Shown one piece after another: positions 3,562 through 55,738 of a DNA stretch of 64,000 nucleotides. Source of the stretch: Candidatus Saccharibacteria bacterium UBA2952 (GTDB lineage: Bacteria; Patescibacteriota; Saccharimonadia; Saccharimonadales; Saccharimonadaceae). The notes beneath the pieces were generated by a model. The model was not told where the DNA came from. It ran no database searches and worked only from the letters and a program-made list of their open reading frames with translations. The position numbers and the translations under genes are program-made. The DNA lies in NCBI GenBank assembly GCA_002348605.1, contig DEBQ01000006.1, positions 78,715-142,714 of the forward strand. Direction: 5' to 3'. Each line of letters opens with the position of its first letter. Positions within the stretch are counted from its first letter, which is position 1.

Positions 3562-5433
3562 CTATGCTGCCGGGTGGAGCATTACTTCCTTTGGTAGCAC
3601 CGTATCTTTCAAAATGGTGTTCACGATATCTTCTTCAAGCGTTTCTTCCTTCAGAAGTGCCGCGGCCAACGTTTCAAGGCTGGCCATGTTGTGTGTCAGC
3701 ACTACCTCGGCCCGGTGAGCAGCTTCTTTTATAAGACTCTCGACTTCGCGGTCAATCTCACGTGCCGTGTCATCGCTATACGGACGTTCGTGGGTAATCT
3801 TGTCGAATACCATGCCGCCGTTGTCGTCGTGGAACACCTGGTCACGAAGCCCCTTGCCCATACCTTGTTCGATAATCATATCGCGGGCAATTTCGGTGGC
3901 CTTTCGCAGGTCGCTACCTGCACCGGTCGTAATGCCGTCACTGCCGTACTTAATCTTTTCGGCCACACGTCCACCCATTGCCCGGGCCAAGATATCCTTG
4001 AACTCATATACGTTCGTATAGCTTTTGTCCTCTGGTGGCAAGAACCATGTCACGCCGCCTGTACCACCGCGCGGAATGATTGTCACCTTATGTACCGGGT
4101 CGCTGTCTGGCAGCACGTGGCCAACAATAGCGTGCCCGGCTTCATGGTAGGCGGTCAGCTCTTTTTCTTTGTCGTTCATAACCTTGGCTTTACGTTCTGG
4201 TCCGATGGCGACTTTTTCAAACGCTTCGGTAAGATCCTTGTTCGAAATCATCTTCGAGTTACGACGCGCTGCGATAATGGCAGCTTCGTTGGCAATGTTG
4301 GCCAGGTCGGCACCACTTGAACCGGCTGTCTTAGCGGCAAGTTTGTCCAGGTTGACGGTTGGGTCGGTTGGCTTGTTCTTAAAGTGGACTTTCAAAATCG
4401 CCTCGCGGTCACGTCGCTCTGGCAGCATGATGTTGGTGCGGCGGTCGAACCGTCCCGGACGAAGCAGGGCAGGGTCAAGTACGTCGGCCCGGTTGGTGGC
4501 CGCAAGCACAATGACGTTCGTGCCGGTTTCGAATCCATCCATTTCTACTAGAATCTGGTTCAGGGTCTGTTCGCGTTCGTCGTGTCCGCCACCCATACCG
4601 CTGCCTCGCTTACGACCAACGGCATCGATTTCGTCGATAAAAATAATGGCCGGTGCATTCTTTTTAGCCTTGGCGAACAGGTCGCGCACTCGGCTAGCTC
4701 CGACACCCACGAACATTTCAACGAATTCGGAACCCGAAATACTAAAGAACGGCACATTGGCTTCACCGGCGACAGCGCGGGCCAGCATGGTCTTACCAGT
4801 ACCTGGGCTTCCAACAAGCAGTACGCCCTTTGGAATCTTGGCGCCAAGCTGCTGGTACTTCTTCGGGTGCTTCAAAAAGTCCACGACTTCTTCAAGGTCT
4901 TGCTTGGCGGCATCGTTACCTGCGATATCAGCAAACACCACCTTTTCTTTGTCGAGTCCGTACAGCTTTGCCTTGCTTTTACCAAACCCAAGCGCCTGGT
5001 TGTTCTGGCCCTGCGCCTGACGCATCATGAACAGGAACAGCAGACCGATTAGCACAACTGGCAGCAGAATGCTGGTTGCCGCCCAAATAGCATTACCAGT
5101 CTCGGACGGCTTCTTAATATTAACGTCGACATTGGCGTCTTTGTTTAGCCCCTGCTCGTAAATGCTTGAGTTTGGTTCTTTAGTCGACTTTTCTGTCGCT
5201 TTGTCTTGACCTTTTGGCGTGACTTTCACGTCGTCGCCTTCAATCTCGATTTTTGAAATTTCACCCTTGTTCGCCCGTTCGGTTACGCTCTTGAGCGATA
5301 CCTGCTTCAGGCTTTCCTGTGGAGACGTAAGAGCAATAACAGCAAGCGTCGAAGCGACGAGCACTAGCCAAAACAAGCCAAGCCGCACCATGTTGCTCAT
5401 ACGTTTGCCAGATGAAGGTTTCTTTGCAGCCAT
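3562..5433 (-). CDS. ftsH: ATP-dependent zinc metalloprotease FtsH
   Basis: N-terminal TM segments, Walker A GSPGTGKT, Walker B IIFIDEID, zinc site HEAGHA. Confidence 0.95.
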
Positions 5434-5511
5434 AAAGTTAAATTATCGTCCTTTCTTGTTCAGTCAGAATGCTCAAGTTACTCCTTGAAATCACTCCTAT
5501 AAATATAGCAG

Positions 5512-6342
5512 TCATAAGGGGTGTTTGACAATGAACTCGCGTTTCGTGAACTCGACAAGCGTGTGGCCACCTGGTTCAAACGTACTGCCAGCCTTGGCTG
5601 TCTTGACAGCATGGAGCAACCGTTGTCGTCTCGGACGGTCAAGTGAGAGTGCTTGGCCAGCTAGTGTGGCGCGGAGTAGCTCTAATGCTGACGCGTCATC
5701 AATCATCGTCAAAAAGTAGCGCGACGACGTGGCCAGTCGCTCCGCTTCGCCGTCAATATCGGACGCAAGTCGGGTTTGCCGCTGCCACATATCAATCAGT
5801 TTTTTCTTTGCTTGGTCATCGAGCAAATTCAATCGTTTTCGAACCCGGTTACGAAGGTATTTGTCCGAAGTATTTGTAGCATCTTCGACCCACTCCAGTC
5901 CGTTTGCCACGGCATAGTCGTATAGCTGCTTTTTTGTGCGGTCAAGTAACAGTCTGTCGATTGTAGGGTCGTTCATTACTGCCAGTCCGCGCCACCCTGT
6001 GCCCCGCACCTGATTAATCACGATCGTTTCGAGCACGTCATCCATATGATGCGCTGTCGCAAGTCGCGCGCCGTGTTTTGTGGCCATGCGCCGCAAAAAG
6101 TCGTATCGGGCACTCCGCGCCGTATCTTCATTGGCGCTCGCGCCAAGTTCACCCTGTTCCAGCTCGAATGGAAGGCCGTACCGTTTTGCCAACCCACCCA
6201 CAAAATGGGCGTCGTCATCCGATTCCTGCCGTATACCGTGGTCAAAATGCGCGACCACTAGTTCGTGCTCACCGGAACGCACCAACATATCCAGCAGTGC
6301 CACCGAGTCCACCCCTCCGCTAACCGCAACCACATACTTCAC
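5512..6342 (-). CDS. tilS: tRNA(Ile)-lysidine synthase TilS
   Basis: PP-loop VAVSGGVDS near N-terminus. ORF track extends to 6381, but an in-frame GTG at 6342 sits 7 nt downstream of TATACT (6350-6355), which removes the overlap with the polymerase gene. Confidence 0.85.
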   Translation of the reverse strand: MKYVVAVSGGVDSVALLDMLVRSGEHELVVAHFDHGIRQESDDDAHFVGGLAKRYGLPFELEQGELGASANEDTARSARYDFLRRMATKHGARLATAHHMDDVLETIVINQVRGTGWRGLAVMNDPTIDRLLLDRTKKQLYDYAVANGLEWVEDATNTSDKYLRNRVRKRLNLLDDQAKKKLIDMWQRQTRLASDIDGEAERLATSSRYFLTMIDDASALELLRATLAGQALSLDRPRRQRLLHAVKTAKAGSTFEPGGHTLVEFTKREFIVKHPL

Positions 6343-6358
6343 GCATCTTAGTATACCG

Positions 6359-8125: not shown

Positions 8126-8155
8126 ATTATAAGTCCTCTTGCCTTGCGGTGTCAA
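8126..8155 (-). promoter_or_regulatory. Putative sigma70-type promoter (TTGACA-N18-TATAAT) for the small-ORF/polymerase operon
   Basis: rc of 8150-8155 is TTGACA and rc of 8126-8131 is TATAAT; lies about 255 nt upstream of the 7869 start. Confidence 0.5.
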
Positions 8156-8215: not shown

Positions 8216-8830
8216 TTAGGCCGTAGCATGCTCAACTTGTTCGTCAGCCGTGAGCGCTGTCGCTGTTATGCCACACTTCTCAAGTAGTTCCGCCAGTACA
8301 CCGGTTGGCAGCCCGATGACTGTATCAAAGTTGCCATCGTACTTTTCAATAAGTGGCCCAGCACCACTTTGAATTCCATAAGCACCAGCTTTGTCCATCG
8401 GATCGCCTGTGGCTACATACGCCGCAACCGCCGCTTCGTCGTACGGTTTAAAGTGAACGGCTGTTGTATCCGCCTCGCTCAATCGTATATTGCCGTTCAT
8501 ACACACCAACGCTACGGCCGTCGTTACATGGTTTGTCTTACCTGCCAAATCCTTCAACATTTCGTGGGCATTTTCTGGCGATATTGGTTTTTCAAGCTGG
8601 CGACCTTCAATAGTCACTATCGTGTCACTGCCAATCACATATGCGTCAGGGTAGTTTTTTGCCACGTCAATTGCTTTTCCTAGTGCCAGTTCTTTGGCAA
8701 CAACGACTGGGTCCCGAGTGTTATCAAGCTTTTCGTCAAACCGGCTCGGAATCGTATCAAACGTCACGCCCATCGCACGTAGTAGGGCACTGCGGCGCGA
8801 AGATTGACTGGCAAGAATAACCTGTTTCAT
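8216..8830 (-). CDS. maf: Maf-like nucleoside triphosphate pyrophosphatase (septum formation protein)
   Basis: 204 aa; N-terminal ILASQSSRRSALL and C-terminal AGAYGIQ motifs typical of Maf. Confidence 0.9.
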   Translation of the reverse strand: MKQVILASQSSRRSALLRAMGVTFDTIPSRFDEKLDNTRDPVVVAKELALGKAIDVAKNYPDAYVIGSDTIVTIEGRQLEKPISPENAHEMLKDLAGKTNHVTTAVALVCMNGNIRLSEADTTAVHFKPYDEAAVAAYVATGDPMDKAGAYGIQSGAGPLIEKYDGNFDTVIGLPTGVLAELLEKCGITATALTADEQVEHATA

Positions 8831-8883
8831 GTTCTCAGTATAAAAGAATCTCGGAATAGTCCGAGGTTCTCTTGATATTCACG

Positions 8884-14700: not shown

Positions 14701-15345
14701 TTATTTGCTTGCGTATTCGGCAAGCTTTTTTCGTAGGTATCGGCGGCGAGCCTGCCGCAGGCGGTCTTTTTCAGGGCTACCGTAGTAACGGTTGCGGTAA
14801 GCATTTAACATCATGGTTCGGGCGTCGAACTCGATTTCTTCTTTGTCGCCAATACCGGCTTCAATAAGCTCTCTGGCATGATAGACATCAAGCGAGTCAC
14901 GGTTCACCATACGACGGTGATTGCGACGTGCGCCTTCGGCGACGTTCGGCAGCTGCGGACCATAACGGTCAAGTATTTCTGGGTGGGTACGGTGAGCAAC
15001 TTCAAAGCCGCCTGGAACACCGCGCTTTTTGCCACCACGTTGGTTAGCGCCACTAATAAGATTCATTAGGTCGAGTTCGTCCTGGTATCGCTGCTCAAGC
15101 GTCACGTACACACCAGGGGCACGCATACCATCGTTAATGACGGCCTGTTCGCGAGCACGCTTGGCGTCAGCTTGGAATTCGGCCGAGTTTTCGATTTCTT
15201 GCATGCGTCGAGCATGCGCTAAGTTGTCCATACCCTGAACGATCGATTCGTTCGCGACTGGAAGGTCTGAGTAATCCTCAACAGGAACAATTTCGCCTTC
15301 GTTGTCGACGCCGAAATTATGAGACCGTTCGTTGAGGTGGTTCAT
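14701..15345 (-). CDS. Hypothetical protein with arginine-rich C-terminus
   Basis: 214 aa ORF with coding-like composition and its own full promoter; no motif recognised. Confidence 0.6.
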   Translation of the reverse strand: MNHLNERSHNFGVDNEGEIVPVEDYSDLPVANESIVQGMDNLAHARRMQEIENSAEFQADAKRAREQAVINDGMRAPGVYVTLEQRYQDELDLMNLISGANQRGGKKRGVPGGFEVAHRTHPEILDRYGPQLPNVAEGARRNHRRMVNRDSLDVYHARELIEAGIGDKEEIEFDARTMMLNAYRNRYYGSPEKDRLRQARRRYLRKKLAEYASK

Positions 15346-15351
15346 ACCTCA

Positions 15352-15380
15352 ATATTACCATAAACGGTATAAATTGTCAA
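15352..15380 (-). promoter_or_regulatory. Consensus promoter TTGACA-N17-TAATAT placed 6 nt from the ATG (leaderless arrangement)
   Basis: rc 15375-15380 is TTGACA, rc 15352-15357 is TAATAT with TGG upstream; ATG at 15345. Confidence 0.7.
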
Positions 15381-16487
15381 CTACTCCCAGCGGAAGACCT
15401 TGAAGGCAATGACATAGATAACTACCAGCCAAAGAGCTGTAAGTCCGAGTTCTGGTCCAATTTCGACTAGGTTTCGGCCTTCGGTAACGACGAACCGCAG
15501 TGCATCGACGATGGGCGTAAGCGGCAATACACCTGAGATACCCTGCAGCCATTCCGGCATTAGGAAACGTGGGAAGAACGTGCCCGACAGGAACATCATT
15601 GGGAAAGTGATCAGATTGCCGAGCGGTGCTGCCTGGTTTTCGTTCTTAGCCCATCCGCCAATTGCCAGACCGACACCGAACATGGTAGCCGTGCCCAGAA
15701 GTACCACTACCAGGATAGTAAAGTAATCGCCGCGCATATTGAGGTCGAAGAACGTCAGTGCCACTGCGAACATGAGTGCCACCGAAAGTACCCCAATGAA
15801 CATTTGGCTAAGAACGTTGGCTAAGAAATACTGCCACACACGCAGGGTCGTTGTGTGGTACCGTCGCAGAATTCCCTGTTGTTTCATGCGGGGGAACACG
15901 CTGGTCGGCCCGAAGATACCAAGGCTTAGGATGGTGAAACCAAGTAATCCTGAGAACGTGTAGTCAAACTGGTTCAACCCCTGCTCCTTTGATACCGTCA
16001 GTTTGGCCGTGAAAGGTGACGGAGCTTTGGTGAGGTCTTGGTTAACCCCATTGAAGATGGCGTCGAAGATTGATTTTAAGGTCGCCCCTGCCTGGGCAGA
16101 GTTTTGGTCAACAACAATTTCAGCCTGCCCGCTTGGGTATTGCTGGTTAGCTTTTACCGTGCCGAACGATTCGGGCAGTTTAATAATCGCGTCGACTTCG
16201 CCGCGTTTCATTTTTTCGCGTGCATCCGCCTCCGTTTTGATGTCTTTATTTACTTTGATCAGGTCGTCTTTTTGGGCGTTTTTTACAAATTCTTTGGAAA
16301 ATGAGTTGTCTGACTTGTTAAGTAGTGCCACGTTGAACGATGGGCCGTTTGAACCGCCGAATATGCCGCCGAATACGAACAAAAAGATAAGTGGAAATAC
16401 GAAAACGAAGAACAGTGCCGTCTTGTCACGGAACGAACGCTTAATATCGATAAGGGCGAATACCAGAATAGGACGGAGTTGTTTCAT
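15381..16487 (-). CDS. ABC-2 type transporter permease
   Basis: 368 aa; N-terminal TM, large extracytoplasmic loop, then a 5-TM C-terminal bundle; adjacent to the ATPase gene. Confidence 0.8.
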   Translation of the reverse strand: MKQLRPILVFALIDIKRSFRDKTALFFVFVFPLIFLFVFGGIFGGSNGPSFNVALLNKSDNSFSKEFVKNAQKDDLIKVNKDIKTEADAREKMKRGEVDAIIKLPESFGTVKANQQYPSGQAEIVVDQNSAQAGATLKSIFDAIFNGVNQDLTKAPSPFTAKLTVSKEQGLNQFDYTFSGLLGFTILSLGIFGPTSVFPRMKQQGILRRYHTTTLRVWQYFLANVLSQMFIGVLSVALMFAVALTFFDLNMRGDYFTILVVVLLGTATMFGVGLAIGGWAKNENQAAPLGNLITFPMMFLSGTFFPRFLMPEWLQGISGVLPLTPIVDALRFVVTEGRNLVEIGPELGLTALWLVVIYVIAFKVFRWE

Positions 16488-17235: not shown

Positions 17236-17474
17236 CGGTTCCACACTGTACATTGTAGCACTCGGCCCTGGGGCGTAAATGACAAAGATCAACAAAAAAG
17301 CCCCGCCGAGAGGGATGGGCTACTGCGGGCCACAACCCTCGTCGTACTGCGAGGCATTTTTGGCACCTGTTTGTTTGATACTACTGTAGCATTATTGCCG
17401 CTTATGTTTCAATGGTAATTTTTACCAGTTGAAACACAGAATGTTTTCAACAAGGTTTACCCTTATCTACCAAA

Positions 17475-18418: not shown

Positions 18419-18510
18419 CTGTTTAAAGCGTTACCTCACCCTATATAAACTGGCTTTAGTATAGCATGAGCGTCTTTGGTTCTTTAGGGTTGATTCTATA
18501 TACTTACGGT

Positions 18511-19770
18511 ATGAACATTTTCTTCTCGGGCATTGGCGGCGTTGGTCTTGGCCCCTTGGCCCAACTGGCCTATGACGCCGGCCATACTGTCAGCGGGAGC
18601 GACGCGGCAGCCGGTATGACGACCGAGGCGCTTACCAGCCAAGGTATTCCGGTGCATATCGGTCAAGGCGACGGATTCTTTGAGCAGTCACACCAAAAGC
18701 AGCCGATTGACCTGCTCGTTTACACGGCTGCCCTGCCACCAACCCATCCCGAATTGGTAAAGGCACATGAACTTGGCATTAGGGCAGTCAAGCGCGACGA
18801 ACTGTTGGCGCAAATCATTCAAGAAAAAAATCTGAAACTAGTCGCGGTCAGCGGCACACACGGCAAGACCACCACAACAGGCATGCTGGTGTGGGCACTC
18901 AAGCAGCTTGGAATACCCGTTAGTTACTCGATTGGCACGACTATCAGTTTTGGTCCAAGTGGCCACTACGAACCGGACAGCGAATACTTCGTGTACGAAT
19001 GCGACGAGTTTGACCGCAACTTTTTGCACTTTTCGCCGGAACTCGCGCTCGTTACGTCGCTAGGTTACGACCATAGCGATACTTACCCGACAAAAGAAAA
19101 TTACCGACAAGCGTTCAGCCAATTCCTGAAGCAATCGAAGCATGGCATTGGCTGGCGGCATGACTTGAAGCAGCTGCCTGATGTGCCGAGCGACACGTTA
19201 TGGCAGCTGCAGGACAATGAAGTCGCGCCAGTTAAGTTAGCTGGTGAGCATTACCGACTGAACGCAACCTTAGTATTGAAAGCGTTGGAATATTTGGGCT
19301 TCGACCACGATGCATCCCTGCTGGAATCTTTCCCCGGCACCAACAGGCGGTTTGAAAAACTAGGCGACAACCTGTACAGCGACTACGGTCATCACCCGAC
19401 CGAGATTGCGGCTACGTTACAGATGGCCCGCGAAGTATCTAATCGGGTCGTTCTGGTCTACCAGCCACACCAAAATATCCGTCAGTACGAAATTAAAGGG
19501 TTGTATCGTAACTGCTTCAAAGACGCCGAAAAAGTGTACTGGCTTCCGACCTACCTTAGCCGCGAAGACCCTGACCTGACCGTCCTAACTCCGCAGGAGC
19601 TGACGGCAGATATTAGCAACAAAGACGCCGTTCTCATCGCCGACATGGACGATGAGCTATGGACCATGCTTGAACTTCACCGAGCAAACGGCGACCTTGT
19701 GCTGGTCATGGGTGCCGGATCGGTTGACGGCTGGGTCCGGTCACGCCTGCAAAAACAACTGACCGATTAG
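18511..19770 (+). CDS. murC: Mur ligase family, UDP-N-acetylmuramate--L-alanine ligase-like
   Basis: IFFSGIGGVGLGPLA Rossmann N-terminus and the GTHGKTTTT P-loop. Start at ATG 18511, 6 nt after TATACT. Confidence 0.75.
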   Translation: MNIFFSGIGGVGLGPLAQLAYDAGHTVSGSDAAAGMTTEALTSQGIPVHIGQGDGFFEQSHQKQPIDLLVYTAALPPTHPELVKAHELGIRAVKRDELLAQIIQEKNLKLVAVSGTHGKTTTTGMLVWALKQLGIPVSYSIGTTISFGPSGHYEPDSEYFVYECDEFDRNFLHFSPELALVTSLGYDHSDTYPTKENYRQAFSQFLKQSKHGIGWRHDLKQLPDVPSDTLWQLQDNEVAPVKLAGEHYRLNATLVLKALEYLGFDHDASLLESFPGTNRRFEKLGDNLYSDYGHHPTEIAATLQMAREVSNRVVLVYQPHQNIRQYEIKGLYRNCFKDAEKVYWLPTYLSREDPDLTVLTPQELTADISNKDAVLIADMDDELWTMLELHRANGDLVLVMGAGSVDGWVRSRLQKQLTD

Positions 19771-20126: not shown

Positions 20127-21041
20127 TTATTGATGCCGTAAGCTAATGTGGTGCTTAGCATGCGGGTGTTTATGATGTTCAACGATATAAACTCCGAACA
20201 AAATCAGCACGCCACCGATAACCATTTCGGGCGACAGTTTTTCGTTCAGCACGACGACCGGAATCAAAATAGCGACGAATGTTTCGAGGTAGCCAAGCGC
20301 GCTCATAACAGCACCGCCCACGCGCTCGTACGACCAGACGTTCAGTGCCCTGCCGATCAGGGCTACAACAATACCGGAATAGCCGACAGCCAACCAATAT
20401 GGCATATCCGTCGGCGTATCAGCTTTGTTGCCAAACAGCAGGAACAGTACCAAGCTGACCGCAACCGCAAACCAGGCGCTTGTACCTATGACATCAGACA
20501 TGGTAACGCCACGCTCGTTTGCCCGGCGCATAAAAATAATAGCAATGGTATACGTGACGCAATTGATTAGCGCCAGTGCCGTCGCCAGCGGGTAAAAAGC
20601 CGTACCGTTCTGACTTAAAGCGATTGGCAGTATGACTAATGTCATAGCTCCGATCATGGCCAACGTTATACCGGCTGCCATGCGACGGTTGAAATTTTCG
20701 TGAAATACTTTGGTTGAAAGCGCGATGAAGATGATTGGCGTAGCCAATGTGACAATCGACACGTAGCTTGCCTGGCTGTGTAGGATGGCTAGCGCATATG
20801 CAATAAGAGCAACGCTAAGCGCAATACTAGTAATCAAGACATCACGCCGGGCCTTTGCCGCAAGCAGTGCTTTTCGGCCTCGAATCATGAACGGCAGACA
20901 AACGAGCCCGATTAAAATGAAGCGACACATCGTGAAATAGTACGGGTCAGCATGTAGCACCGTACTGCGTATGATCGTCGCGTTCGGGGCAGCCAACATG
21001 ACGGCGACAAGCGCCACTAAGAACCATTTGGAAGCTTTCAT
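20127..21041 (-). CDS. EamA/DMT family transporter
   Basis: 304 aa with 10 TM segments in a duplicated 5+5 layout. Confidence 0.8.
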   Translation of the reverse strand: MKASKWFLVALVAVMLAAPNATIIRSTVLHADPYYFTMCRFILIGLVCLPFMIRGRKALLAAKARRDVLITSIALSVALIAYALAILHSQASYVSIVTLATPIIFIALSTKVFHENFNRRMAAGITLAMIGAMTLVILPIALSQNGTAFYPLATALALINCVTYTIAIIFMRRANERGVTMSDVIGTSAWFAVAVSLVLFLLFGNKADTPTDMPYWLAVGYSGIVVALIGRALNVWSYERVGGAVMSALGYLETFVAILIPVVVLNEKLSPEMVIGGVLILFGVYIVEHHKHPHAKHHISLRHQ

Positions 21042-21047
21042 TCAGTC

Positions 21048-21692
21048 TTATTGTATCATCGGGGTCGCTCGTACCAGGTTTGTGGTCCGTCCTTCGTCGG
21101 TCCAACGCGCCTCGTAGGTCGTCATGATTTTGTAGTCGGAAGCAAGTTCGGAATCGTGAAGATCGAATGTGAGTTCTTGAATAAGCCACTGTTCGTGTAC
21201 CAGCTGTTCTAAGCTCCACAAAAAGAAGTCGCGTGAATCGTGCTTAAGTATGAACGAACCGTCACTAACGAGCAGGGTTCGGTAAATATTCAAGAAAGTC
21301 GGATGCGTCATTCGCCGACCGCTTGAACGCTTACGCGGGAATGGGTCTGGGAATGTAAGCCAGATTGTCTGGGCTGAGTGTTCGATAAAACAATCGGCCA
21401 GCTGGTCGGCCCGGGCGCGAAGAAACCTGATATTGGTTAGGCCTCGGGCCGCAGCCTCATACGCACCTTTTTGCAGCCTGTCGGCTTTGACATCGACTGC
21501 CACGAATTGCTTATTCGGGTAACGCTCGGCCAGTTCGACACTGAATAAGCCTGTGCCTGCACCGACTTCAATCACATCGACGGATGTCTTTTCCCACTCA
21601 TCTAGTTCGAAACAAAGCGGCGAGTTGGCGAATTTTGCGAATTTGTACTTTTTTCGTCGGCGAGTAATAACAAAATCGTTTGGATTGATCAT
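21048..21692 (-). CDS. trmB: tRNA (guanine-N7)-methyltransferase TrmB
   Basis: VIEVGAGTGLF SAM motif and the FPDPFPRKR signature. Confidence 0.85.
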   Translation of the reverse strand: MINPNDFVITRRRKKYKFAKFANSPLCFELDEWEKTSVDVIEVGAGTGLFSVELAERYPNKQFVAVDVKADRLQKGAYEAAARGLTNIRFLRARADQLADCFIEHSAQTIWLTFPDPFPRKRSSGRRMTHPTFLNIYRTLLVSDGSFILKHDSRDFFLWSLEQLVHEQWLIQELTFDLHDSELASDYKIMTTYEARWTDEGRTTNLVRATPMIQ

Positions 21693-22243: not shown

Positions 22244-22343
22244 ATGGCGTGCAGTTCTATGGACTTATCATTTCGCATTCGGACAAAAAAATGAGCCCTG
22301 CTCATTTTTCCTGCCACCTATTGCTAGTGCTATACTACCACAT

Positions 22344-23222
22344 ATGGACCCCTTCAAAAACCAACAGCTACTCTCGACACTCGGCACCTGGCTACAGGAT
22401 AATTGGTTCGAACTCGTCGTCATTTTTGCCGCAGCATTAATCGCCTACTTCGCCGGTACGCGGATTGTCGCCTTTATCGTTAAACGCGCCGTCAAAGGCG
22501 CCCGTCACCGGGCTTGGCACAAAAAAGATATCGAGAAACGACAAAAGACGTTGGTCGGGTTGTTCGTTAGCGTTTGGCGGATCGTCATTTTCTTCACGGT
22601 GTTATATGCCCTGCTGGCCGTCTTTTTCCCAAATATCGGTACGGCTATGGCTCCGCTGTTCGCGAGTGCTGGTATTATAGGCGTGGCTTTGGGGTTTGGC
22701 GCGCAGTCGCTGATAAAAGACTTTTTGTCAGGCATATTCATTATTTCTGAAAACCAGTACCGCGTTGGTGACGTCATTGACATCGAAGGGTTTTCGGGCA
22801 CAGTCGAGCGGATTGGCACCAGAAGCACGGTACTGCGCGATGTAGACGGCAACGTGCATTATTTCCCGAACGGCATGGTACAGCACGTCATTAACAAGAC
22901 CATGGGGTATAGCATGGCCCGGTTCACCATGCTACTTCACCCCGACACGGATATTGATATGGCTTCTGAGCTAATCGATACTGTCGGCAAGGCACTCAGC
23001 GAGGAAGAAACCTGGAAGGATAAGATTCTAAGTGCGCCTGCATTCGTTTCAGTCGGCGAAATCACTGGCAGTTCGGTCGAAATTATTGTTGCCGGTAAAA
23101 CACAACCGAGCGATCAGTGGAGCGTCGTATCAGAAATGCGCCGCCGTCTGTTAGAAGAATTTGAAAGCAAGCAAATCCGTCTTGCGGTCACCCCCTTCCC
23201 TGCCGCTGGGCTTAAAAAGTAA
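22344..23222 (+). CDS. Mechanosensitive ion channel MscS family
   Basis: 3 TM segments followed by QYRVGDVIDIEGFSGTVERIGTRSTVLR. Start at ATG 22344, 7 nt after TGcTATACT. Confidence 0.85.
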   Translation: MDPFKNQQLLSTLGTWLQDNWFELVVIFAAALIAYFAGTRIVAFIVKRAVKGARHRAWHKKDIEKRQKTLVGLFVSVWRIVIFFTVLYALLAVFFPNIGTAMAPLFASAGIIGVALGFGAQSLIKDFLSGIFIISENQYRVGDVIDIEGFSGTVERIGTRSTVLRDVDGNVHYFPNGMVQHVINKTMGYSMARFTMLLHPDTDIDMASELIDTVGKALSEEETWKDKILSAPAFVSVGEITGSSVEIIVAGKTQPSDQWSVVSEMRRRLLEEFESKQIRLAVTPFPAAGLKK

Positions 23223-23600: not shown

Positions 23601-24127
23601 GAATGCTCCTTGTCATAGGCGGTCTTGAAGTCGGTGAACGTCGTGCCATACTGCCGCACAAGATTCTTGATAGTCTGGTTCGTCTTGGACAACTCGTTAC
23701 GCTTTTCACGTGCGGTCAAAAGTGCGTTATAAAAGGCTACCGGTTCGCGGGTGCAGTCGATTTCAAGTACCTTTGTCAGGGCGTTGTCGTATTGGATGTA
23801 TTGGTCGTAGAATTTGGTGTAGGCTTCGTTATAGTCAGCCGTTATGGTAAGTAGCGCGCCACCATCAAGCTGGTTCGATGCCAACCGGCGGTTCAAAGGG
23901 ACCATTAGTTTGTCACTGATCGTTCGGTACAGGTTGCCGCGGTCGTTGCGAAGAAACGCGTCGGTTTGATGTAACCGGTTCAGCGCTGCTTGGTTCTCAA
24001 CACAGCGGCTACGGATACGCGCCATCTTCTCCGGCGTAATGGTCGCGGCCGCTTCTGCCTGTCCTGCCGACACAAATAAACCAGCACCGAGCAGCAGTGC
24101 AGCCACCATTAAAAGACGAAATTTCAT
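23597..24127 (-). CDS. Hypothetical secreted protein
   Basis: 176 aa with an N-terminal signal-peptide-like MKFRLLMVAALLLGAGLFVSAGQAEA. Confidence 0.55.
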   Translation of the reverse strand: MKFRLLMVAALLLGAGLFVSAGQAEAAATITPEKMARIRSRCVENQAALNRLHQTDAFLRNDRGNLYRTISDKLMVPLNRRLASNQLDGGALLTITADYNEAYTKFYDQYIQYDNALTKVLEIDCTREPVAFYNALLTAREKRNELSKTNQTIKNLVRQYGTTFTDFKTAYDKEHS

Positions 24128-24152
24128 GCTTATTAGTATGCGACGTCCGCCC

Positions 24153-24953
24153 CTATTTGGTCAAATGAAGCCGACCGGCCGTAACCCTCACTAACCCGTC
24201 ACTCAAAAGACCGGAAAGCGCTAACTCAAATCGTCCGTCGGCTGATAGCTCACGACGCAGAGTCTGCTCGTCGCAATCACTAACTACCAACCGGCGCACG
24301 ATTTGTCCGCGTACTTGGCGGATACTTCCTTCGAGTGGCGACTGCTTTTTGTAGTGTTTGCTTGAAGTGTTATTCCGGACTCCTTGCGCTTTCAGCCAAC
24401 TGCCGTAGTCCATGAGCGACCAGTAAAATTCGCGAGGGTGCTCGCGGTCGAGCGTTTCGTTCAGTTTCTTTAAAATCTGCGTATCATCAACGGTTTCGGT
24501 GTCATTAAAGAAATGGTGAATGTAAACGGTACGGATATTCGTTTCTACAAAAATTGCAGGGGTGTTGAATGCGTAAGCCAAAATCGCTCCGGCAGTGTTC
24601 GTACCGACGCCAGGAAGGCTCAGTAATTCTGGTGCTGATTCCGGAAACCGCCCCTCAAACTCATTGACGACGCGTTTTGCCGCCTCGTGTAAAAATTTGG
24701 CGCGGCGATTATAGCCAAGACCTTGCCAGGCCATTAGGACATGGGCCAAACTGGCACTTGCTAGCGTTTGTTCGTCCGGAAAGGCGGCAATAAACGCTTC
24801 GAACTTTGGAATCACGCGGGGCACCTGCGTCTGCTGCAACATAAGTTCACTTACCAGTACGTAATACGGTCTGGTGTCATTGCGCCAAGGCATGTCGCGG
24901 TAGAGTTCTTTTCCCTTTTGCCATAACAGCACTTTAAACTCAGCGTTTTGCAC
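24153..24953 (-). CDS. HhH-GPD DNA glycosylase, MutY-like, without an Fe-S cluster loop
   Basis: SELMLQQTQV and LPGVGTNTAGAI helix-hairpin-helix motifs. The region where MutY/Nth carry Cx6Cx2Cx5C has no cysteines. Confidence 0.7.
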   Translation of the reverse strand: MQNAEFKVLLWQKGKELYRDMPWRNDTRPYYVLVSELMLQQTQVPRVIPKFEAFIAAFPDEQTLASASLAHVLMAWQGLGYNRRAKFLHEAAKRVVNEFEGRFPESAPELLSLPGVGTNTAGAILAYAFNTPAIFVETNIRTVYIHHFFNDTETVDDTQILKKLNETLDREHPREFYWSLMDYGSWLKAQGVRNNTSSKHYKKQSPLEGSIRQVRGQIVRRLVVSDCDEQTLRRELSADGRFELALSGLLSDGLVRVTAGRLHLTK

Positions 24954-24983
24954 CCCCTTATTGTACAGGGGTATACTAATAGA

Positions 24984-25514
24984 ATGACGACATACGTTCT
25001 AGCAGGAGGATGTTTTTGGTGCTTAGACGCCGTATTTAGGCGGCTTAATGGCGTTACTCAATCTACCTGCGGATATGCGGGCGGAACGAAAGAAGAAGCC
25101 GATTACTACCGTGTCGCAAGCGGTCAAACCGGACATGCCGAAAGCGTACGGGTAACCTTTGACGAATCAACGCTTCCCAAAGAAGACCTTCTGGACATTT
25201 TCTTCCTGATTCATAATCCCACGACCATAAACCGCCAAGGTGCGGATACCGGGCCGCAGTACCGTAGCGCGATGTTTTATGCCGACGACACGCAAAAAGC
25301 CGATTTCGAAGCCGCCGCCAACCGGTCCGCGCAAAACTGGGACGACCCGATTGTGACCGAACTGGCACCACTCGACGCGTTTTACGAAGCCGAACCTGAG
25401 CATCAGGATTACTTTACGAACAATCCCGCCAATCCATATTGCTCGGTCGTCATTAACCCCAAGGTCGTAAAAGCCAAAAAAGAATACGCTAAGTACTTCA
25501 AGGAGGTAGTATGA
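24984..25514 (+). CDS. msrA: Peptide methionine (S)-sulfoxide reductase MsrA
   Basis: GGCFWC active site at the N-terminus. Start at ATG 24984, 6 nt after TATACT. Confidence 0.9.
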   Translation: MTTYVLAGGCFWCLDAVFRRLNGVTQSTCGYAGGTKEEADYYRVASGQTGHAESVRVTFDESTLPKEDLLDIFFLIHNPTTINRQGADTGPQYRSAMFYADDTQKADFEAAANRSAQNWDDPIVTELAPLDAFYEAEPEHQDYFTNNPANPYCSVVINPKVVKAKKEYAKYFKEVV

Positions 25515-27974: not shown

Positions 27975-28008
27975 GTCCTCAAGTATATCAGCGTGCTACA
28001 GTGGAACT

Positions 28009-30553: not shown

Positions 30554-30643
30554 ATCTTGGCCATTATACCTTATTACCAGAGGTGATTGCCAGTGAGACG
30601 CGTTGCTGTCATACTATAGCTAAACCGTAAGCGTTATATAAAC

Positions 30644-33258: not shown

Positions 33259-33345
33259 CCACTTTATTGTACCCGAACGCGAACTATTGTTTCAAAGTGA
33301 ACTTTAGTACAATAGGAAGGACTTAATAAGGAGACTTACTGACAT

Positions 33346-38999: not shown

Positions 39000-39935
39000 C
39001 TAGAAGATGCGCAGCCGTCTGCCGACCAGATAAACAAGCAGAATTAGTAGCGCAGTGAACGATGCGATGGCTGGAAACACCCAAGGCTGATTGGTCGGAA
39101 ACGGCAACAATATATTCATTCCAAGCATGCCATAAAGGACATTTGGCAGTGTAATGAGTACGGTAAAAACGGTGAGCGTTTTCATTCGTTGGTTCAGTCC
39201 GTTGTTCGCAATTGTGCTATAGGCGTTTCGGATACTTTCGACACGGCTTTGGTAGCTTTTTATGGCTACAAGTAATTGCTGAATATGCAGGCCAATGTCG
39301 TCGAGCGCTTCGAGACTCTGCGTGCCCAGCGTGTCGTGGGTATTTTCGCGCAGGCGTTTAGTCATAGCAAGCATACTGTCCAGGTTCATGTGGCAGTGTG
39401 TCAGGTTATCTTCGACCGTCACAAAATGTATGAAATCGTGGTTCGTAATTTCGTGTGTCTTCAAACGGTTAGCTGTATCGGTAATAGAACGAGACGTATG
39501 AGAAATCATGTCTTCGAACGCCGCTACAGCAGAAGCCATCACGCCGATAAGTAGCGTTTCGGTGTGCTCCGTCGTTATTGGCAAGGTGGACAATGCAACC
39601 GTTTGTGGTTGGATACCTTCGCCAATGCTGACCGTTATGAACGTCGTTGGCTTAACGACACAAAGAAGTGGCAGCGTCGTAACATGGGAAGACTTGGTCA
39701 GCCGAGGTAGGCGCAGGAATACATAGGCAGTGCCGTTAGAATACTCGACGCGTGGCAGCTCGCCACGGTCACGAACATCGTACACGACGTTAGTGTCAAG
39801 GTCGTGTGCCTTTATAATCGAATCGATTTCGCTGTCAGAAGCCGTTTGCGCGTCAATCCACACACCGTGTTCAATCGGCTGACTAATCTGTTCAAAGTCC
39901 TCACCCGGAGAGCGCTTGGCATAATACGCTAACAT
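39000..39935 (-). CDS. corA: CorA-family magnesium/cobalt transporter
   Basis: 311 aa with two C-terminal TM segments and YGMLGMN (GMN motif). Confidence 0.8.
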   Translation of the reverse strand: MLAYYAKRSPGEDFEQISQPIEHGVWIDAQTASDSEIDSIIKAHDLDTNVVYDVRDRGELPRVEYSNGTAYVFLRLPRLTKSSHVTTLPLLCVVKPTTFITVSIGEGIQPQTVALSTLPITTEHTETLLIGVMASAVAAFEDMISHTSRSITDTANRLKTHEITNHDFIHFVTVEDNLTHCHMNLDSMLAMTKRLRENTHDTLGTQSLEALDDIGLHIQQLLVAIKSYQSRVESIRNAYSTIANNGLNQRMKTLTVFTVLITLPNVLYGMLGMNILLPFPTNQPWVFPAIASFTALLILLVYLVGRRLRIF

Positions 39936-39970
39936 ACTACCGGTAGTATATAGCGTTTATGCTTATGTCG

Positions 39971-41981: not shown

Positions 41982-42542
41982 CTATGGCTTGCTGATGTAG
42001 GAGTTGTGCGTTATATAAAAACGCCACGGCTCGTCAGCGGCCTTAGAAATTCCAACGCGCGTTGCCGTCGTAATATCTTTGTCCACGAGTTGGGGTTTTA
42101 GCTCAAGCTTCAGTGGACTCTTTGCCAGGTCATGCCCATTCATGCGCTTATCGACTCCGAGTGCTTGGCACAATTTGGCTGGTCCGTTTGTTAGGTCGAT
42201 TCCTTGCTTTGGTCGCCTTTCGCTAAGTAATTCTTCGCCTTCAATCGGCTCGACTGCGCGAATCAACACCGCCGCACCGTAATGCTCTGGCCCGACCACG
42301 ACGTTCATGCAGTAATGCATGCCATACGTAAAGTACACATACAAATGCCCGGCCGGGCCGAACATTACATCGGTGCGCTGAGTACGACCATTATAGCTGT
42401 GGCTGGCGGCGTCGGTTTGGTCGTAGGCTTCGGTTTCAACTATCCGCACCCTTGCTTGACCGTCACCAAAAGTCCGAATAAGTTCACAGCCGAGTAGGCG
42501 TTTCGCCGCGTCAACTGCTGATAAACGAGATAAAATCTCCAT
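41982..42542 (-). CDS. mpg: DNA-3-methylpurine glycosylase (Mpg/AAG family)
   Basis: ETEAY, GPAGHLYVYFTYGMHYCMNVV motifs. Confidence 0.9.
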   Translation of the reverse strand: MEILSRLSAVDAAKRLLGCELIRTFGDGQARVRIVETEAYDQTDAASHSYNGRTQRTDVMFGPAGHLYVYFTYGMHYCMNVVVGPEHYGAAVLIRAVEPIEGEELLSERRPKQGIDLTNGPAKLCQALGVDKRMNGHDLAKSPLKLELKPQLVDKDITTATRVGISKAADEPWRFYITHNSYISKP

Positions 42543-42584
42543 TTACATAATTATAGACTCGTTCGACTACGCTTTGTACTTATG

Positions 42585-44273: not shown

Positions 44274-44311
44274 TCTGATTGTTAGTGTACATATACGAGT
44301 ATAATAAAAGT

Positions 44312-44569
44312 ATGAGCGAGAGTAAATCCAACAAAGAAGAATTCAGGGTTAGCGGCGAAGAGCTACTTGCCAAGGTTAAAGAAATTATTCGCGAAGGCAA
44401 CGTTCGGCGACTTATTATCAAAGACAAAGACGGCAAGACCATGGTAGAAATCCCGTTGACCGTCGGAGTGGTTGGCATCGTACTCGCACCGGTATTGGCT
44501 GCCGTTGGTGCAATCGCCGCCTTGGTCACGGAATGTACGATCTTAGTTGAGCGTACTGACGCTAAATAA
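44312..44569 (+). CDS. DUF4342-like small protein
   Basis: 85 aa; EEFRVSGEELLAKVKEIIREGNVRRLIIKDKDGKTMVEIPLTVGVVG. ATG is 6 nt after TATAAT. Confidence 0.65.
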   Translation: MSESKSNKEEFRVSGEELLAKVKEIIREGNVRRLIIKDKDGKTMVEIPLTVGVVGIVLAPVLAAVGAIAALVTECTILVERTDAK

Positions 44570-45274
44570 CTTCACCCATTCTTCAAGCGTTAGCTGCGAC
44601 GGAATTTTTTCAGGCGACAGACCTGCTTTTTCGCGTGGGGTTTTAGCAAAGAACTTCTGCTCGGCAAAGCAGCGTTCAATGAATGTCCGGTACTTCGGCA
44701 TCGCTTCAATCAGCAACAGCGGTTCTTCCCGCAACTTTAGTTCCAACAGCACCGTGTCGACACCCGGCGGCGGTGTAAAGTCAGTCCGTTTTAAGGGCTT
44801 ACGGATACGCGCTGCAAATAGTGGCCCGATCTGTGCGCCGAGCTGCGACGTAAAATGGTCACTGCCCGGTTCTAATTTTCGGGCGAACTGGCGCTGGGCA
44901 ATCAGGTAGATCGCTTTCGGTGGCCGCGGACTTTCGGTAAACTTACGAACAATCGCCGCACTTAGATTGAATGGGATGTTCGAGAATATCTTGTAGGGAA
45001 CTTCTGGCGGGTCAAGCGTTAGAATGTCTTGTTCAAGAATATTTACATTCAATACATTGCCCAAATTAGTTCGGAGCTTTTTGACCGCGCCGGGCTCAAT
45101 TTCTACCGCGATTACTTTTTTGCAGCGGTTTGCCAGTACGCTCGCAATCACGCCGCTGCCGGCGCCAAGATCGTATACCAGATCGTTCTTGCGGATATTA
45201 GAATGACCAATCAGTTCCGCAACAATGTGCGGACTACGTAAAAAGTGCTGGGCGTATTCATGCTCACGGGCCAT
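44543..45274 (-). CDS. rRNA adenine N6-dimethyltransferase family, Erm-like by size and C-terminus
   Basis: 243 aa; AQHFL (QNFL-like), DLGAGSGV SAM loop, NIPFNLS, FTPPPGVDT. The short C-terminal domain fits Erm better than KsgA, but this is not decisive. Confidence 0.7.
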   Translation of the reverse strand: MAREHEYAQHFLRSPHIVAELIGHSNIRKNDLVYDLGAGSGVIASVLANRCKKVIAVEIEPGAVKKLRTNLGNVLNVNILEQDILTLDPPEVPYKIFSNIPFNLSAAIVRKFTESPRPPKAIYLIAQRQFARKLEPGSDHFTSQLGAQIGPLFAARIRKPLKRTDFTPPPGVDTVLLELKLREEPLLLIEAMPKYRTFIERCFAEQKFFAKTPREKAGLSPEKIPSQLTLEEWVKLFSVSTLN

Positions 45275-45309
45275 ATGGTGTCATTATACCTTGTTTTAAG
45301 AGTGATGTA

Positions 45310-45820: not shown

Positions 45821-46603
45821 TTAAGCTTCTCGCCGAAGCGCCTCTTGCCCTGCGGTGGCTGCCTCGCTGACGAGCGTAGAATATACGGTCTGACTTAGTT
45901 CCTTTGGGTTGTTGGCAAAATGCTGCATAAGCGGCGAACGCTCATCGGCAAACTGTGCCATCGTTGGGCGTACGCCCAACGCATCAGTCAGATCAAGCGC
46001 TGCCTCGTACTCGGTATGGGCTGCTTGCATGGCAGCTTCTTGCATCTCTACTCTATCCATCCTCATGTTAGCTACGTTATGTTTAATGACGGCCAATGTA
46101 ACCGCGCTGGTAGCGAGTGCCCGGCCTAATTGAATGTCTTTTCGGGCGATCATATTCGGACTTCGGTCTTTAAATACCATTTCCTCGACGACACTTGCCA
46201 GTTCCGCGGTTCGCGACAAGTCAATCTTGGCTTTTTCAATTAGATTTTCTGGGCTTAGGCGTTCGTCCGTTTCAGGGTCTATCATAATAGGCAGTTTTGC
46301 ACGCCTGAACATTACTTCGTCACCAAAATGCTGCGCATAGGTATGGTATGCGCTGCCCATCCCCGTGACGGCAAGTAGTGATGCGGCTTCTTCAATGTCG
46401 CTGTCACTTCCAGCGTCTGCGATATGCCTGAATGTTCGTTCGGCAGTCGCCGTGCCCACCTTTTGTAACCATGGAATCACAACCCCTTGCCTACCTTTAA
46501 ACATGGCTAGGCGTTCGTTGTCCCGGGTCGGTGCTGGAACATAATCCAGACCCTCGGCTGTTTGTACGGTGTTAAATACATATTCTCTTCGCTCTCTACT
46601 CAT
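45821..46603 (-). CDS. Hypothetical protein
   Basis: 260 aa, helical-looking; TATAGT 7 nt upstream of the ATG; no motif recognised. Confidence 0.6.
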   Translation of the reverse strand: MSRERREYVFNTVQTAEGLDYVPAPTRDNERLAMFKGRQGVVIPWLQKVGTATAERTFRHIADAGSDSDIEEAASLLAVTGMGSAYHTYAQHFGDEVMFRRAKLPIMIDPETDERLSPENLIEKAKIDLSRTAELASVVEEMVFKDRSPNMIARKDIQLGRALATSAVTLAVIKHNVANMRMDRVEMQEAAMQAAHTEYEAALDLTDALGVRPTMAQFADERSPLMQHFANNPKELSQTVYSTLVSEAATAGQEALRREA

Positions 46604-46687
46604 ATAAACTACTATACGCTGCTTATTGCATGATGTATAGAAATATTACATCGTATATAAGCATAAGCTTCCTGCTATACTATGGCT

Positions 46688-47071
46688 ATGGATAACGCCG
46701 AACTACTTAACCAGTTGAACCAGCAACAGCAGAATGGCAGCGGTGACCAAACTACCCTGCTGCAAAGCCTGCTTGGCGGAACGGATGGTGGCAGTTTGAT
46801 TCCCGAATCGTTGGTACAAACACTGACCATCAGTCTTATCGCGCTGAACGTGGTCGGTGTACTGTTTCTTATCGCGTATATATTAAGCGGTATTCGCAAA
46901 TGGAAGGTGCAATCGGCCGTGCTTCACATGCGAAAAGACCTAGAAGAAATCAAAGCCCACATGTCGCCTCCCGCTCCTGCCTCACAGCCCGAACCGGTGG
47001 CTACGCAAACCGAAACGCCCGACAAACCGGCTCCAGGCGAACAGTCGAGCAATACCTCTACTACGGTGTGA
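46688..47071 (+). CDS. Hypothetical single-pass membrane protein with Gln-rich N-terminus and Pro-rich C-terminus
   Basis: Second ATG (46688) is 6 nt after TGcTATACT; the track ORF starts at 46682. Confidence 0.55.
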   Translation: MDNAELLNQLNQQQQNGSGDQTTLLQSLLGGTDGGSLIPESLVQTLTISLIALNVVGVLFLIAYILSGIRKWKVQSAVLHMRKDLEEIKAHMSPPAPASQPEPVATQTETPDKPAPGEQSSNTSTTV

Positions 47072-52753: not shown

Positions 52754-52892
52754 TACCTCGCTTGTTGCCAAAGCCCCAGACATTAAAGAACGCCGGCCCT
52801 ACCCCGCCGGCGTTCTTATATATATGTCGGACTACCGGTACCACTGTAAGGCGTGCTACCATTAATCTATAGCCGGAAAATATGGGAATACG

Positions 52893-54443: not shown

Positions 54444-54445
54444 CC

Positions 54446-55114
54446 ATGCTAGACCACCATATTCAAAAGTCGATCGTATACGACCTGGCGTTCGCCGAAA
54501 GCCTGCGCTTTAGCGACCTAAAGCCGGATGACATGGAAAACAAGGCCTTCACCTACCACCTGAAGAAAGTCATGAAAGCCGGCCTAGTGGAAAAGTTGGA
54601 CGACGGCCGCTACACGCTAACCATGAAAGGCCGCCGGGTTGGGAAAGGTGCGTTAAAAAAAGAGAGCCGGTTATTAGACAGGGCGTATTCAATCCTTCTG
54701 CTCGCAGTCAGAAACATTGAAGACGATACCTGGCTACTGTATAAACGGCAGACCCAACCCCTGCTTGGACTGGTCGGGTTTATGCAAGCCCAGCCGGTCG
54801 CCGAAACCGACGCATGCAGTACGGCCGAGAAGACGTGTTTCGAGGAGACTGGAATCAAGGCCGAATTCGCAGTTCAGGGCCATGGGTATTTTAGGGTGTA
54901 CCGTAAAGGCGAGCTTGAAAGCTTCATTCATTTCACGCTCCTTATTGGGCAAGATCCTCAGGGCGAACTGCTTGAAACAGCGGAATCGGCCGGTTACTTT
55001 TGGCAACGAACGCCGAACTTCGCGCACCCTGATATGCTACCGAACATGCAAACACTTCACAAAATGTGCTTAGATCTACCTGGTTCTTTTGTTGAAGCGA
55101 CATTTGAGTTGTAG
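54446..55114 (+). CDS. Winged-HTH protein fused to a Nudix-like domain with a degenerate Nudix box
   Basis: N-terminal wHTH (FTYHLKKVMKAGLVEKLDDGRYTLT). The C-terminal segment carries KTCFEETGI in place of REx2EExGU. Starts 2 nt after the kinase stop. Confidence 0.5.
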   Translation: MLDHHIQKSIVYDLAFAESLRFSDLKPDDMENKAFTYHLKKVMKAGLVEKLDDGRYTLTMKGRRVGKGALKKESRLLDRAYSILLLAVRNIEDDTWLLYKRQTQPLLGLVGFMQAQPVAETDACSTAEKTCFEETGIKAEFAVQGHGYFRVYRKGELESFIHFTLLIGQDPQGELLETAESAGYFWQRTPNFAHPDMLPNMQTLHKMCLDLPGSFVEATFEL

Positions 55115-55255
55115 TCTTCATATTATTTGTCCTTTCGTTACTTGCTATACATAACTATGGACTTTGGCCGCTTAAGAAGCAGTGAAGACTTTTTCACCAA
55201 CTAGTTTGAATACTTCCATGTTTACTTATTTGTTAAAATATTATATAATAAAAGT

Positions 55256-55738
55256 ATGAATACCATAGAGCGTCTTCGAATAAATCCCGAAGACCCCTCC
55301 ATACAGCAGATGCTTGCTAGGCAGGCGATGGAAGCGATACGCGCTGAAGTGTATATCAACTACTTACACGCTGTCGACCAGTACCATGGCGGCTGCGATA
55401 CCAATCATCCAGCTGCTATTGAATTGCAAAACGAAAAAAGTGCTTTTGCCCGCTCAGAATATCCTCTAATTCCATATTTTTGGCTACTACACAACGATGA
55501 CGGGTCGATATTCCAGGAAATGCTTGAGCTTAATAAGATAGACCCGAACACCGCCGAGCATCCACTCATTACCCATCGCACCCACCTGAATGGTCTGCAC
55601 ATAACAGACGGCAAGTTACTCGTAGCTATTTTTAACAACACGTCAGAAGAAGTATGGCGTAATGCTCACTTCACCCACAAACAATCCAGCCTATTGTTCG
55701 GACACGCCCGTGAGATTGAAGCCATAGCCAGAGACTAA
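55256..55738 (+). CDS. Hypothetical protein
   Basis: 160 aa; ATG 6 nt after TATAAT; 3' end overlaps the convergent kinase gene by 48 nt. Confidence 0.5.
   Translation: MNTIERLRINPEDPSIQQMLARQAMEAIRAEVYINYLHAVDQYHGGCDTNHPAAIELQNEKSAFARSEYPLIPYFWLLHNDDGSIFQEMLELNKIDPNTAEHPLITHRTHLNGLHITDGKLLVAIFNNTSEEVWRNAHFTHKQSSLLFGHAREIEAIARD

Follow-up and report, generated by a model that had tools for sequence, protein, structure and literature searches.

Start-proximal extended -10 elements point to a leaderless mode of gene expression in a Saccharibacteria genome

Extended -10 promoters (TGnTATAAT) work without a -35 element, as in the galP1-type promoters of Escherichia coli, and are common in Gram-positive bacteria. 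A gene architecture in which the -10 element lies directly in front of the start codon has been defined as group C in GeneMarkS-2 (Lomsadze et al. 2018, PMC6028130): a Pribnow box is found 6-8 nt before first-in-operon starts, ribosome-binding sites are used elsewhere, and 25-50% of the operons are leaderless. The main text of that paper names Actinobacteria, Deinococcus-Thermus, Proteobacteria, and Firmicutes for this group, and leaderless transcriptomes have been mapped experimentally in Mycobacterium tuberculosis (PMC3898074) and Deinococcus deserti (PMC4007540). Here, we describe an architecture of this known kind, the mechanism of which is not new in itself, in a 64,000-nt stretch of DNA (hereafter the window) from Candidatus Saccharibacteria bacterium UBA2952 and in the genome to which it belongs. 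About one quarter of all genes, and about one half of those that need a promoter of their own, have a -10 box 6-9 nt before the start codon and no Shine-Dalgarno (SD) sequence, and such genes are most likely made as leaderless mRNAs.

For the same phylum, 188 transcription start sites of Nanosynbacter lyticus TM7x, inferred from RNA-seq coverage, were used in PMC12641261, where only an unusually variable distance between -10 and start site is reported for TM7x and leaderless mRNAs are unmentioned. The TM7x transcriptome preprint holds no text on untranslated regions, promoters, or start sites. In the searchable literature, leaderless architecture in Saccharibacteria, the candidate phyla radiation, and Patescibacteria receives only incidental mentions and no paper that describes it was found, the group C lists being judged from the main text.

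The window corresponds to contig C4:78715-142714 of the assembly (G000), which comprises 820 kb in 8 contigs with a GC content of 51% and a completeness of 97.6%. When the FtsH of the window was searched by tblastn, the closest matches were found in Candidatus Saccharibacteria metagenome-assembled genomes (MAGs), with up to 80% identity, and the remoter ones in other Patescibacteria and in Chloroflexota. The spacing between -10 hexamer and start codon was measured without gene calls: every TATA[AC]T on both strands of the whole genome was located and the downstream ATGs were tallied per distance, split into those opening an open reading frame (ORF) of at least 100 codons and those opening a short ORF. 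The hexamer precedes long-ORF ATGs 49, 37, 29, and 12 times at spacers of 6, 7, 8, and 9 nt, respectively, against about 2 times at each spacer elsewhere, which amounts to a 20- to 25-fold excess at spacers 6-8; ATGs of short ORFs show a flat profile of about 8 per spacer without a peak. With TA[TC]A[ACG]T, a less strict hexamer, the same spacers yield 72, 57, 39, and 22 occurrences, and the peak of the fully degenerate TANNNT is just about 2-fold above a 3-periodic background. GTG starts display a small peak (8, 8, and 5 against a background of about 3), and the spacing peak is absent for TTG, CTG, and ATH codons throughout the genome. Furthermore, AGGAG forms a peak of its own at 5-10 nt before long-ORF ATGs (19, 12, 15, 20, 10, and 11 against about 2).

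Genes were called with our own gene caller, which relies on a codon-usage log-odds score and greedy non-overlapping selection, and in which the start is chosen from the coding score, the type of start codon, and whichever of two motif models fits better. This yielded 827 genes covering 90% of the genome. A gene was called leaderless-type (LL) when its motif scored at least 3 nats with a position weight matrix (PWM), and SD-led when it had an SD-like match of at least 4 nt. The LL signal was found in 221 of the 827 genes (27%; 26.7% of the chosen starts), whereas this threshold is reached by 0.27% of 8,729 internal ATGs and by 0.74% of upstream regions after shuffling. Spacers of 6, 7, 8, 9, 10, and 11 nt are represented by 81, 63, 40, 20, 12, and 5 LL genes, respectively. 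Because the whole start-choosing pipeline run with decoy matrices (reversed, complemented, and column-permuted) returned 8, 9, 9, 11, and 33 genes, the false discovery can be put at roughly 4-15%, so that roughly 190-210 LL genes are real cases. As the choice of start makes use of the motif, all percentages of LL genes depend on the model, which is not the case for the spacing histograms and the decoy runs. A preliminary description of the window had noticed the spacing between hexamer and ATG at about 20 genes, and both the genome scan and the shuffled controls show that it goes beyond chance. It had also noted that AGGAG-type SDs coexist with such starts, which holds as well: the 74 genes of the window comprise 19 LL genes, 33 with an SD match of at least 4 nt, and 22 with neither.

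The trained motif reads TGnTA(T/C)A(A/C)T, in which T1, A2, and T6 of the hexamer are almost invariant and a G occupies position -14 in 80%. The seeds of the PWM required the hexamer only, TGn not being used for seeding, and exact TGn is present at 45-48% of the LL starts. An unbiased estimate, with hexamers set by sequence and spacing alone, gave TGn at 76 of 168 start-proximal hexamers (45%) and at 147 of 1482 hexamers elsewhere (9.9%; p=3e-27). In LL promoters aligned on the hexamer there is almost no information upstream of the TG. A conserved -35 element at these promoters was considered and rejected, as TTGACA matches at spacers 16-18 are no better than those of a mis-spaced control and matches of 5-of-6 or better occur at only 3.4%. 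Hexamers located 15-250 nt upstream of non-LL genes have such a match at N16-18 in 14.5% (p=1e-4) and TGn in 27.5%. Since the -35 element is commoner and TGn rarer at the latter hexamers, leadered and leaderless genes appear to use partly different promoter designs. The hexamers of non-LL genes tend to be located about 23-50 nt from the start. The genome encodes two sigma-70-family proteins at C3:39911-43453 (331 and 456 amino acids), each with regions 1.2, 2, 3, and 4; the two genes lie on the same strand about 1.2 kb apart, and both appear to be SD-led, not leaderless.

The bases that follow the hexamer form a pattern that is constant across spacers: positions +1 to +3 are A-rich, +5 is enriched in G, +6 is A-poor (10-21%), and +7 is an A in 47-51%, the values for +6 and +7 being measured for spacers 7-11. 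In spacer-6 genes, the A of the ATG falls on +7, and 82% of these genes have a pyrimidine at position -1. This pyrimidine-purine pattern is the signature expected for a start site 7 nt past the -10 element, and suggests that spacer 6 would give rise to true 5'-AUG mRNAs and spacers 7-9 to leaders of 1-3 nt. A pyrimidine at -1 was rejected as a general mark of LL genes, because the pooled LL genes do not differ from other genes (p=0.69) and the preference is visible only after splitting by spacer.

Many transcription units most probably begin with a sigma-70-type extended -10 element, TGnTA(T/C)A(A/C)T, usually with no recognisable -35. RNA polymerase would start about 7 nt past the hexamer, which coincides with the A of the ATG for spacer 6 and precedes it by 1-3 nt for spacers 7-9, and would thereby produce mRNAs that lack a leader, or have one of at most about 3 nt, and that lack an SD. 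Leaderless translation would proceed by binding of the ribosome and the initiator tRNA to the 5'-terminal AUG, and in operon-internal genes AGGAG-type SDs would pair with an intact CCUCC anti-SD.

The position of a gene in its operon is closely tied to the signal that it carries. The LL signal occurs mainly at operon-first genes; operon-internal genes, most of which have an AGGAG-type SD, almost lack it (2-9%). Genes divergent from their neighbour are LL in 47% and SD-led in 29% of the cases, and genes that follow a same-strand gene after a gap of 16-40 nt in 51% and 24%. At same-strand gaps of 0-15 nt the shares are 9% LL and 53% SD, and at genes overlapping the upstream gene they are 2% and 68%. 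SD-like matches of at least 4 nt occur at 6.8% of the LL genes, which is under the 13.7% background at internal ATGs and consistent with the earlier statement that the start codons in question lack an SD. The LL start codons comprise 201 ATG, 20 GTG, and no TTG. A search with Rfam RF00177 found no 16S rRNA gene in the assembly, as often happens with MAGs, and relatives were used for the anti-SD instead: the 16S 3' end GGAUUACCUCCUUU is a canonical anti-SD in the same-genus G009 and G010 (98% FtsH identity) and in G015, a member of another family of the same order. The sole good match to ribosomal protein S1 (rpsA) lies at C6:6742-7812 in an open frame of about 360 amino acids, extends over positions 7-359 of a model with 516 positions, and reaches 240 bits against a curated cut-off of 577; it may bear on the handling of non-SD mRNAs.

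The register between hexamer and start codon is conserved among relatives. Syntenic 70-kb regions were compared from the same-genus G004, G009, G001, and G005 and from G015, and orthologue starts were counted only if the alignment extends to residues 1-3 and the start codons coincide in position. Of the 23 orthologue starts that correspond to LL genes of the window, 19 keep the LL signal, compared with 3 of 36 for SD genes and 6 of 25 for genes with neither signal; the upstream flanks of the orthologues are otherwise unalignable. The murC-like Mur ligase gene (18511) has TAnAnT-N6-ATG in five of five species with unrelated flanks (N followed by a number gives the spacer), and the aspS-like gene (30553) has a -10 hexamer at N7-N9 in five of five. 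For corA (39935), TATACT or TACAAT stands at N8-N10 in four of four species despite a PWM score below the threshold, and for mscS (22344), msrA (24984), 24953, and 61642 the signal is present in three of three each. The DUF4342 gene (44312) has an orthologue in G004 with 78% identity that carries AAGGAG upstream and no start-proximal -10 element. To judge from this gene, the expression mode can apparently switch between leaderless and SD-led from one species to another.

The relatives also bear on where the start codons are. For tilS (in G005), the murC-like gene (in G004 and G015), and 17244 (in G004 and G005), the frame is closed by a stop 0-9 codons upstream of the equivalent start, and no other start codon comes in between. 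In the case of tilS, the stop in G005 immediately precedes the start and thereby forces the GTG. Pfam domains begin within residues 2-8 for tilS, maf, the Mur ligase, msrA, MPG, DUF4342, and RrnaAD (tilS PP-loop at residue 2, maf at 3, PMSR of msrA at 4, RrnaAD at 5, and MPG at 8), and the true starts of these seven genes are therefore not further downstream. For mscS and msrA, the orthologues align from residue 1, and the alternative upstream starts are not positionally conserved. The preliminary description had moved the over-extended start codons of tilS, murC, mscS, msrA, and 28009 inward; for the first four, the correction is borne out by the stops in relatives, the Pfam domain starts, and the orthologue alignments.

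The start regions of the window are collected in the table. The 20 start coordinates, hexamers, and spacings given by the preliminary description were all reproduced, with a TAnnnT-like hexamer 6-9 nt upstream at each, and the starts chosen by our gene caller coincide with all 20. Fifteen of them pass the PWM threshold, and those below it are 5433 (GATAAT), 24127 (CATACT), 15345 (TAATAT), 46603 (TATAGT), and 39935 (TATACT). Three further instances that had not been listed are 17244, 24953, and 61642. In G004 and G005, the orthologues of 17244 have TATAAT or TATACT at N7-8 before an ATG, with the stops 1-2 codons upstream. The orthologue of 27974 in G005 has TATACT-N6-ATG shifted by one codon. 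Orthologue alignments of 24127 start only at residues 23-25, and no orthologue of the 214-amino-acid ORF (15345) was found in the compared loci of the relatives. The -10 element of the EamA transporter gene overlies the 3' end of the upstream gene, the intergenic gap being 6 nt.

Table. Start regions in the window (lowercase letters, bases directly upstream of the hexamer; scores in nats)
Feature	Position	Strand	Arrangement	PWM score	Remark
ftsH	5431..5450	-	gacGATAAT-N8-ATG	-1.3	
tilS-like (PP-loop)	6340..6358	-	cggTATACT-N7-GTG	7.0	identical in G004
maf	8828..8845	-	TATACT-N6-ATG	5.3	G001 orthologue TGcTATAAT-N7-ATG
214-amino-acid ORF	15343..15383	-	TTGACA-N17-TAATAT-N6-ATG	1.5	perfect -35
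17244	17242..17260	-	tgcTACAAT-N7-GTG	7.4	previously unlisted
Mur ligase (murC-like), 18511	18496..18513	+	TATACT-N6-ATG		
EamA transporter	21039..21058	-	tgaTACAAT-N8-ATG	6.0	
MscS	22328..22346	+	tgcTATACT-N7-ATG	8.0	same extended -10 and spacing in G004, G005
176-amino-acid ORF	24125..24143	-	CATACT-N7-ATG	-0.4	weak
Divergent LL pair, 24953 (-) and msrA, 24984 (+)	24951..24986	both	- TACAAT-N6-GTG; + TATACT-N6-ATG		30 bp apart
Divergent LL pair, 27974 (-) and 28009 (+)	27972..28011	both	- tgaTATACT-N7-ATG; + tgcTACAGT-N6-ATG	7.1 (-); 5.2 (+)	34 bp apart
Class II Asp/Asn/Lys-type tRNA synthetase (aspS-like; Pfam)	30551..30571	-	TATAAT-N9-ATG		
CBS-domain protein	33256..33274	-	gggTACAAT-N7-ATG	6.2	
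corA	39933..39953	-	TATACT-N9-ATG	2.9	
Methylpurine glycosylase (mpg)	42540..42558	-	TATAAT-N7-ATG	5.1	
DUF4342 protein	44297..44314	+	TATAAT-N6-ATG	4.9	
rRNA adenine dimethylase-family (RrnaAD)	45272..45291	-	aggTATAAT-N8-ATG	6.2	not conserved in G004
260-amino-acid ORF	46601..46619	-	TATAGT-N7-ATG	1.6	below threshold
127-amino-acid ORF	46673..46690	+	tgcTATACT-N6-ATG	8.2	top score of the window
160-amino-acid ORF	55241..55258	+	TATAAT-N6-ATG	5.7	
61642	61640..61657	-	tggTATCAT-N6-ATG	4.7	previously unlisted; TATCAT or TACACT at N6 in G004, G005

The ftsH gene had been counted among the leaderless genes and is probably not one of them, since its hexamer is not kept in G001 or G005 while all five relatives keep a motif resembling GAAAGGA about 15 nt before the ATG (window 5434-5470). 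This conserved motif may be a long-spaced SD or another leader element. The preliminary description had also pointed to a 15-mer, TATAATAAAAGTATG, shared by two start regions, in which it lies at 44300 and 55244. The identity is real, and the string is the only duplicated promoter-to-ATG sequence among the 221 LL promoters; it carries no meaning, as chance alone, estimated from position-specific base frequencies, would yield about one such pair in the 81 spacer-6 promoters. A mobile or duplicated promoter was rejected on the same ground, the two proteins being unrelated at their N-termini. In an oxidoreductase gene (window 57229-57254), the first in-frame ATG (57243) is separated from a TATAAT by just 3 nt, and 3 codons further on there is another ATG (57252). 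The transcript probably starts between both ATGs, and the second one, which comes after 'gaggcac', may be the real start.

LL promoters also occur in very tight arrangements. LL signals on both sides are found in 23 of 115 divergent pairs, with start-codon gaps down to 20, 23, 30, 31, and 34 bp, and two such pairs, 24953/24984 and 27974/28009, lie in the window. The closest pair is located outside the window at C7:25525-25550 (starts 25527/25548), where the divergent start codons are separated by 20 bp in the arrangement CAT-aaaaca-AGTATACT-aaagct-ATG. Its two TATACT boxes overlap by 4 bp in the palindrome AGTATACT, and each is 6 nt from its start.

The peak at spacers 6-8 is present in every same-genus sample and in G015. 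In 100-kb samples from seven other families of Patescibacteria, the counts at spacers 6-8 sum to 10, 7, 6, 5, 2, 2, and 2, compared with about 20 per 100 kb in G000 and about 3 expected from background. Of the seven samples, G040 has a clear start-proximal -10 peak, G023, G057, and G046 have a modest one, and G041, G042, and G027 have none. Loci around ftsH from 80 genomes gave a broad, weak signal only, with few genes per locus, and 246 kb of Chloroflexota loci showed no spacing peak. Within the limits of such small samples, this suggests a trait that is pronounced in this order and occurs patchily in other parts of the phylum.

Taken as a whole, the data make it very probable that extended -10 promoters are placed so as to give leaderless mRNAs and that SDs serve inside operons. 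The leaderless reading of the preliminary description, ftsH apart, agrees with what was found for the motif, the operon position, the SD, the start codon, and the conservation. Several points nevertheless weigh against it. That the hexamers fire as promoters, where transcription starts, and that translation is leaderless are all read from the sequence. The 77 of 221 LL genes with spacers of 8-11 nt may have a leader of 2-5 nt rather than none. Across the genome, 32% of the genes have neither an LL nor an SD signal, so that the picture is incomplete. The LL share of 27% is tied to the motif through the choice of starts, an inflation that the decoys bound at roughly 4-15%. Finally, two or three of the 20 originally listed instances are weak (ftsH, 24127, and 46603).

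A first alternative is that the hexamers are real promoters with a secondary or conditional role, and that most of the protein is made from longer read-through transcripts. Read-through transcripts are themselves likely, given that 110 LL genes are preceded on the same strand by another gene at a median distance of 40 nt, which is often too short for a terminator. A leadered copy would, however, have no obvious translation route, because SD-like matches at LL genes are under the background; divergent genes cannot receive read-through, yet 47% of them carry the signal; and the register between -10 and ATG is kept gene by gene across species. We regard this explanation as improbable. The hexamer also sits at ribosome-binding distance from starts at which the SD is missing, so that it might be a TA-rich, non-SD translation signal on a leadered mRNA, similar to GeneMarkS-2 group B, instead of a promoter. 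Such a signal should precede every gene, as in group B, but the hexamer is found at only 2-9% of the operon-internal genes. Moreover, it has the exact sigma-70 -10 pattern with TGn in the correct register and is followed 7 nt downstream by the purine/pyrimidine pattern of a start site, and the relatives have a canonical 16S anti-SD, with AGGAG used at other genes. A translation signal is hence a good deal less likely still than read-through. An origin of the pattern in base composition, or in the selection of starts and hexamers by eye, could be argued from the looseness of TAnnnT and the mere 2-fold peak of TANNNT. This explanation is refuted by the TATA[AC]T excess, the rarity of the signal at internal ATGs and in shuffled sequence, the small yield of the decoy motifs (8-33 genes vs 221), and the flat Chloroflexota profile, and its probability is close to nil.

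A broader interpretation is offered tentatively, as its parts, taken together, fall somewhat short of being probable. In Saccharibacteria, genes may by default be expressed from a self-contained signal of about 18 bp that consists of an extended -10 element and the ATG and lacks a -35. It may represent a promoter class separate from the -35 promoters of leadered, SD-led genes, and it may permit extreme packing, with a promoter of its own for each same-strand gene at gaps of 16-40 bp and with divergent start codons 20-34 bp apart, at which the polymerase footprints would have to overlap and the two polymerases could exclude each other. The choice between the leaderless and SD modes may be evolutionarily fluid among orthologues, and the trait may be concentrated in this order, with a patchy distribution among the remaining Patescibacteria.

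Gene callers that are tuned to the SD over-extend or misplace starts in such genomes, as here for at least 5 of the approximately 74 genes of the window, and recognising the leaderless mode improves the annotation of Saccharibacteria and other ultra-small bacteria. For cultured Saccharibacteria, TGnTATA(A/C)T-N6-ATG offers a minimal promoter-plus-start design for genetic systems. With this architecture, a deep-branching lineage with a reduced genome also joins the groups in which leaderless initiation is heavily used, which bears on the question of whether the leaderless mode is ancestral or favoured by genome compaction.

Compared with the known systems, the architecture resembles group C in having a Pribnow box 6-8 nt before first-in-operon starts and SDs at other genes, in its preference for AUG and GUG, and in a -35 element that is weak or absent; the LL share of 47% at divergent genes lies inside the 25-50% of operons reported for that group. 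It likewise agrees with the leaderless transcriptomes mapped in mycobacteria and Deinococcus. It differs from group C in its lineage, Patescibacteria/Saccharibacteria not being among those named in the main text, in the strong TGn extension of the -10 element, and in a tiny 820-kb genome with divergent start codons as near as 20-34 bp, and it is known here through sequence analysis. The TM7x study (PMC12641261) concerns the same phylum, and sigma-70-type promoters were modelled there as well. With extended -10 promoters, the architecture described here shares the TG placed one base upstream of the hexamer (exact TGn in 45-48%, G in 80%) and -35 matches at the level of the mis-spaced control. 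Unlike extended -10 promoters in general, the present class is tied specifically to leaderless starts.

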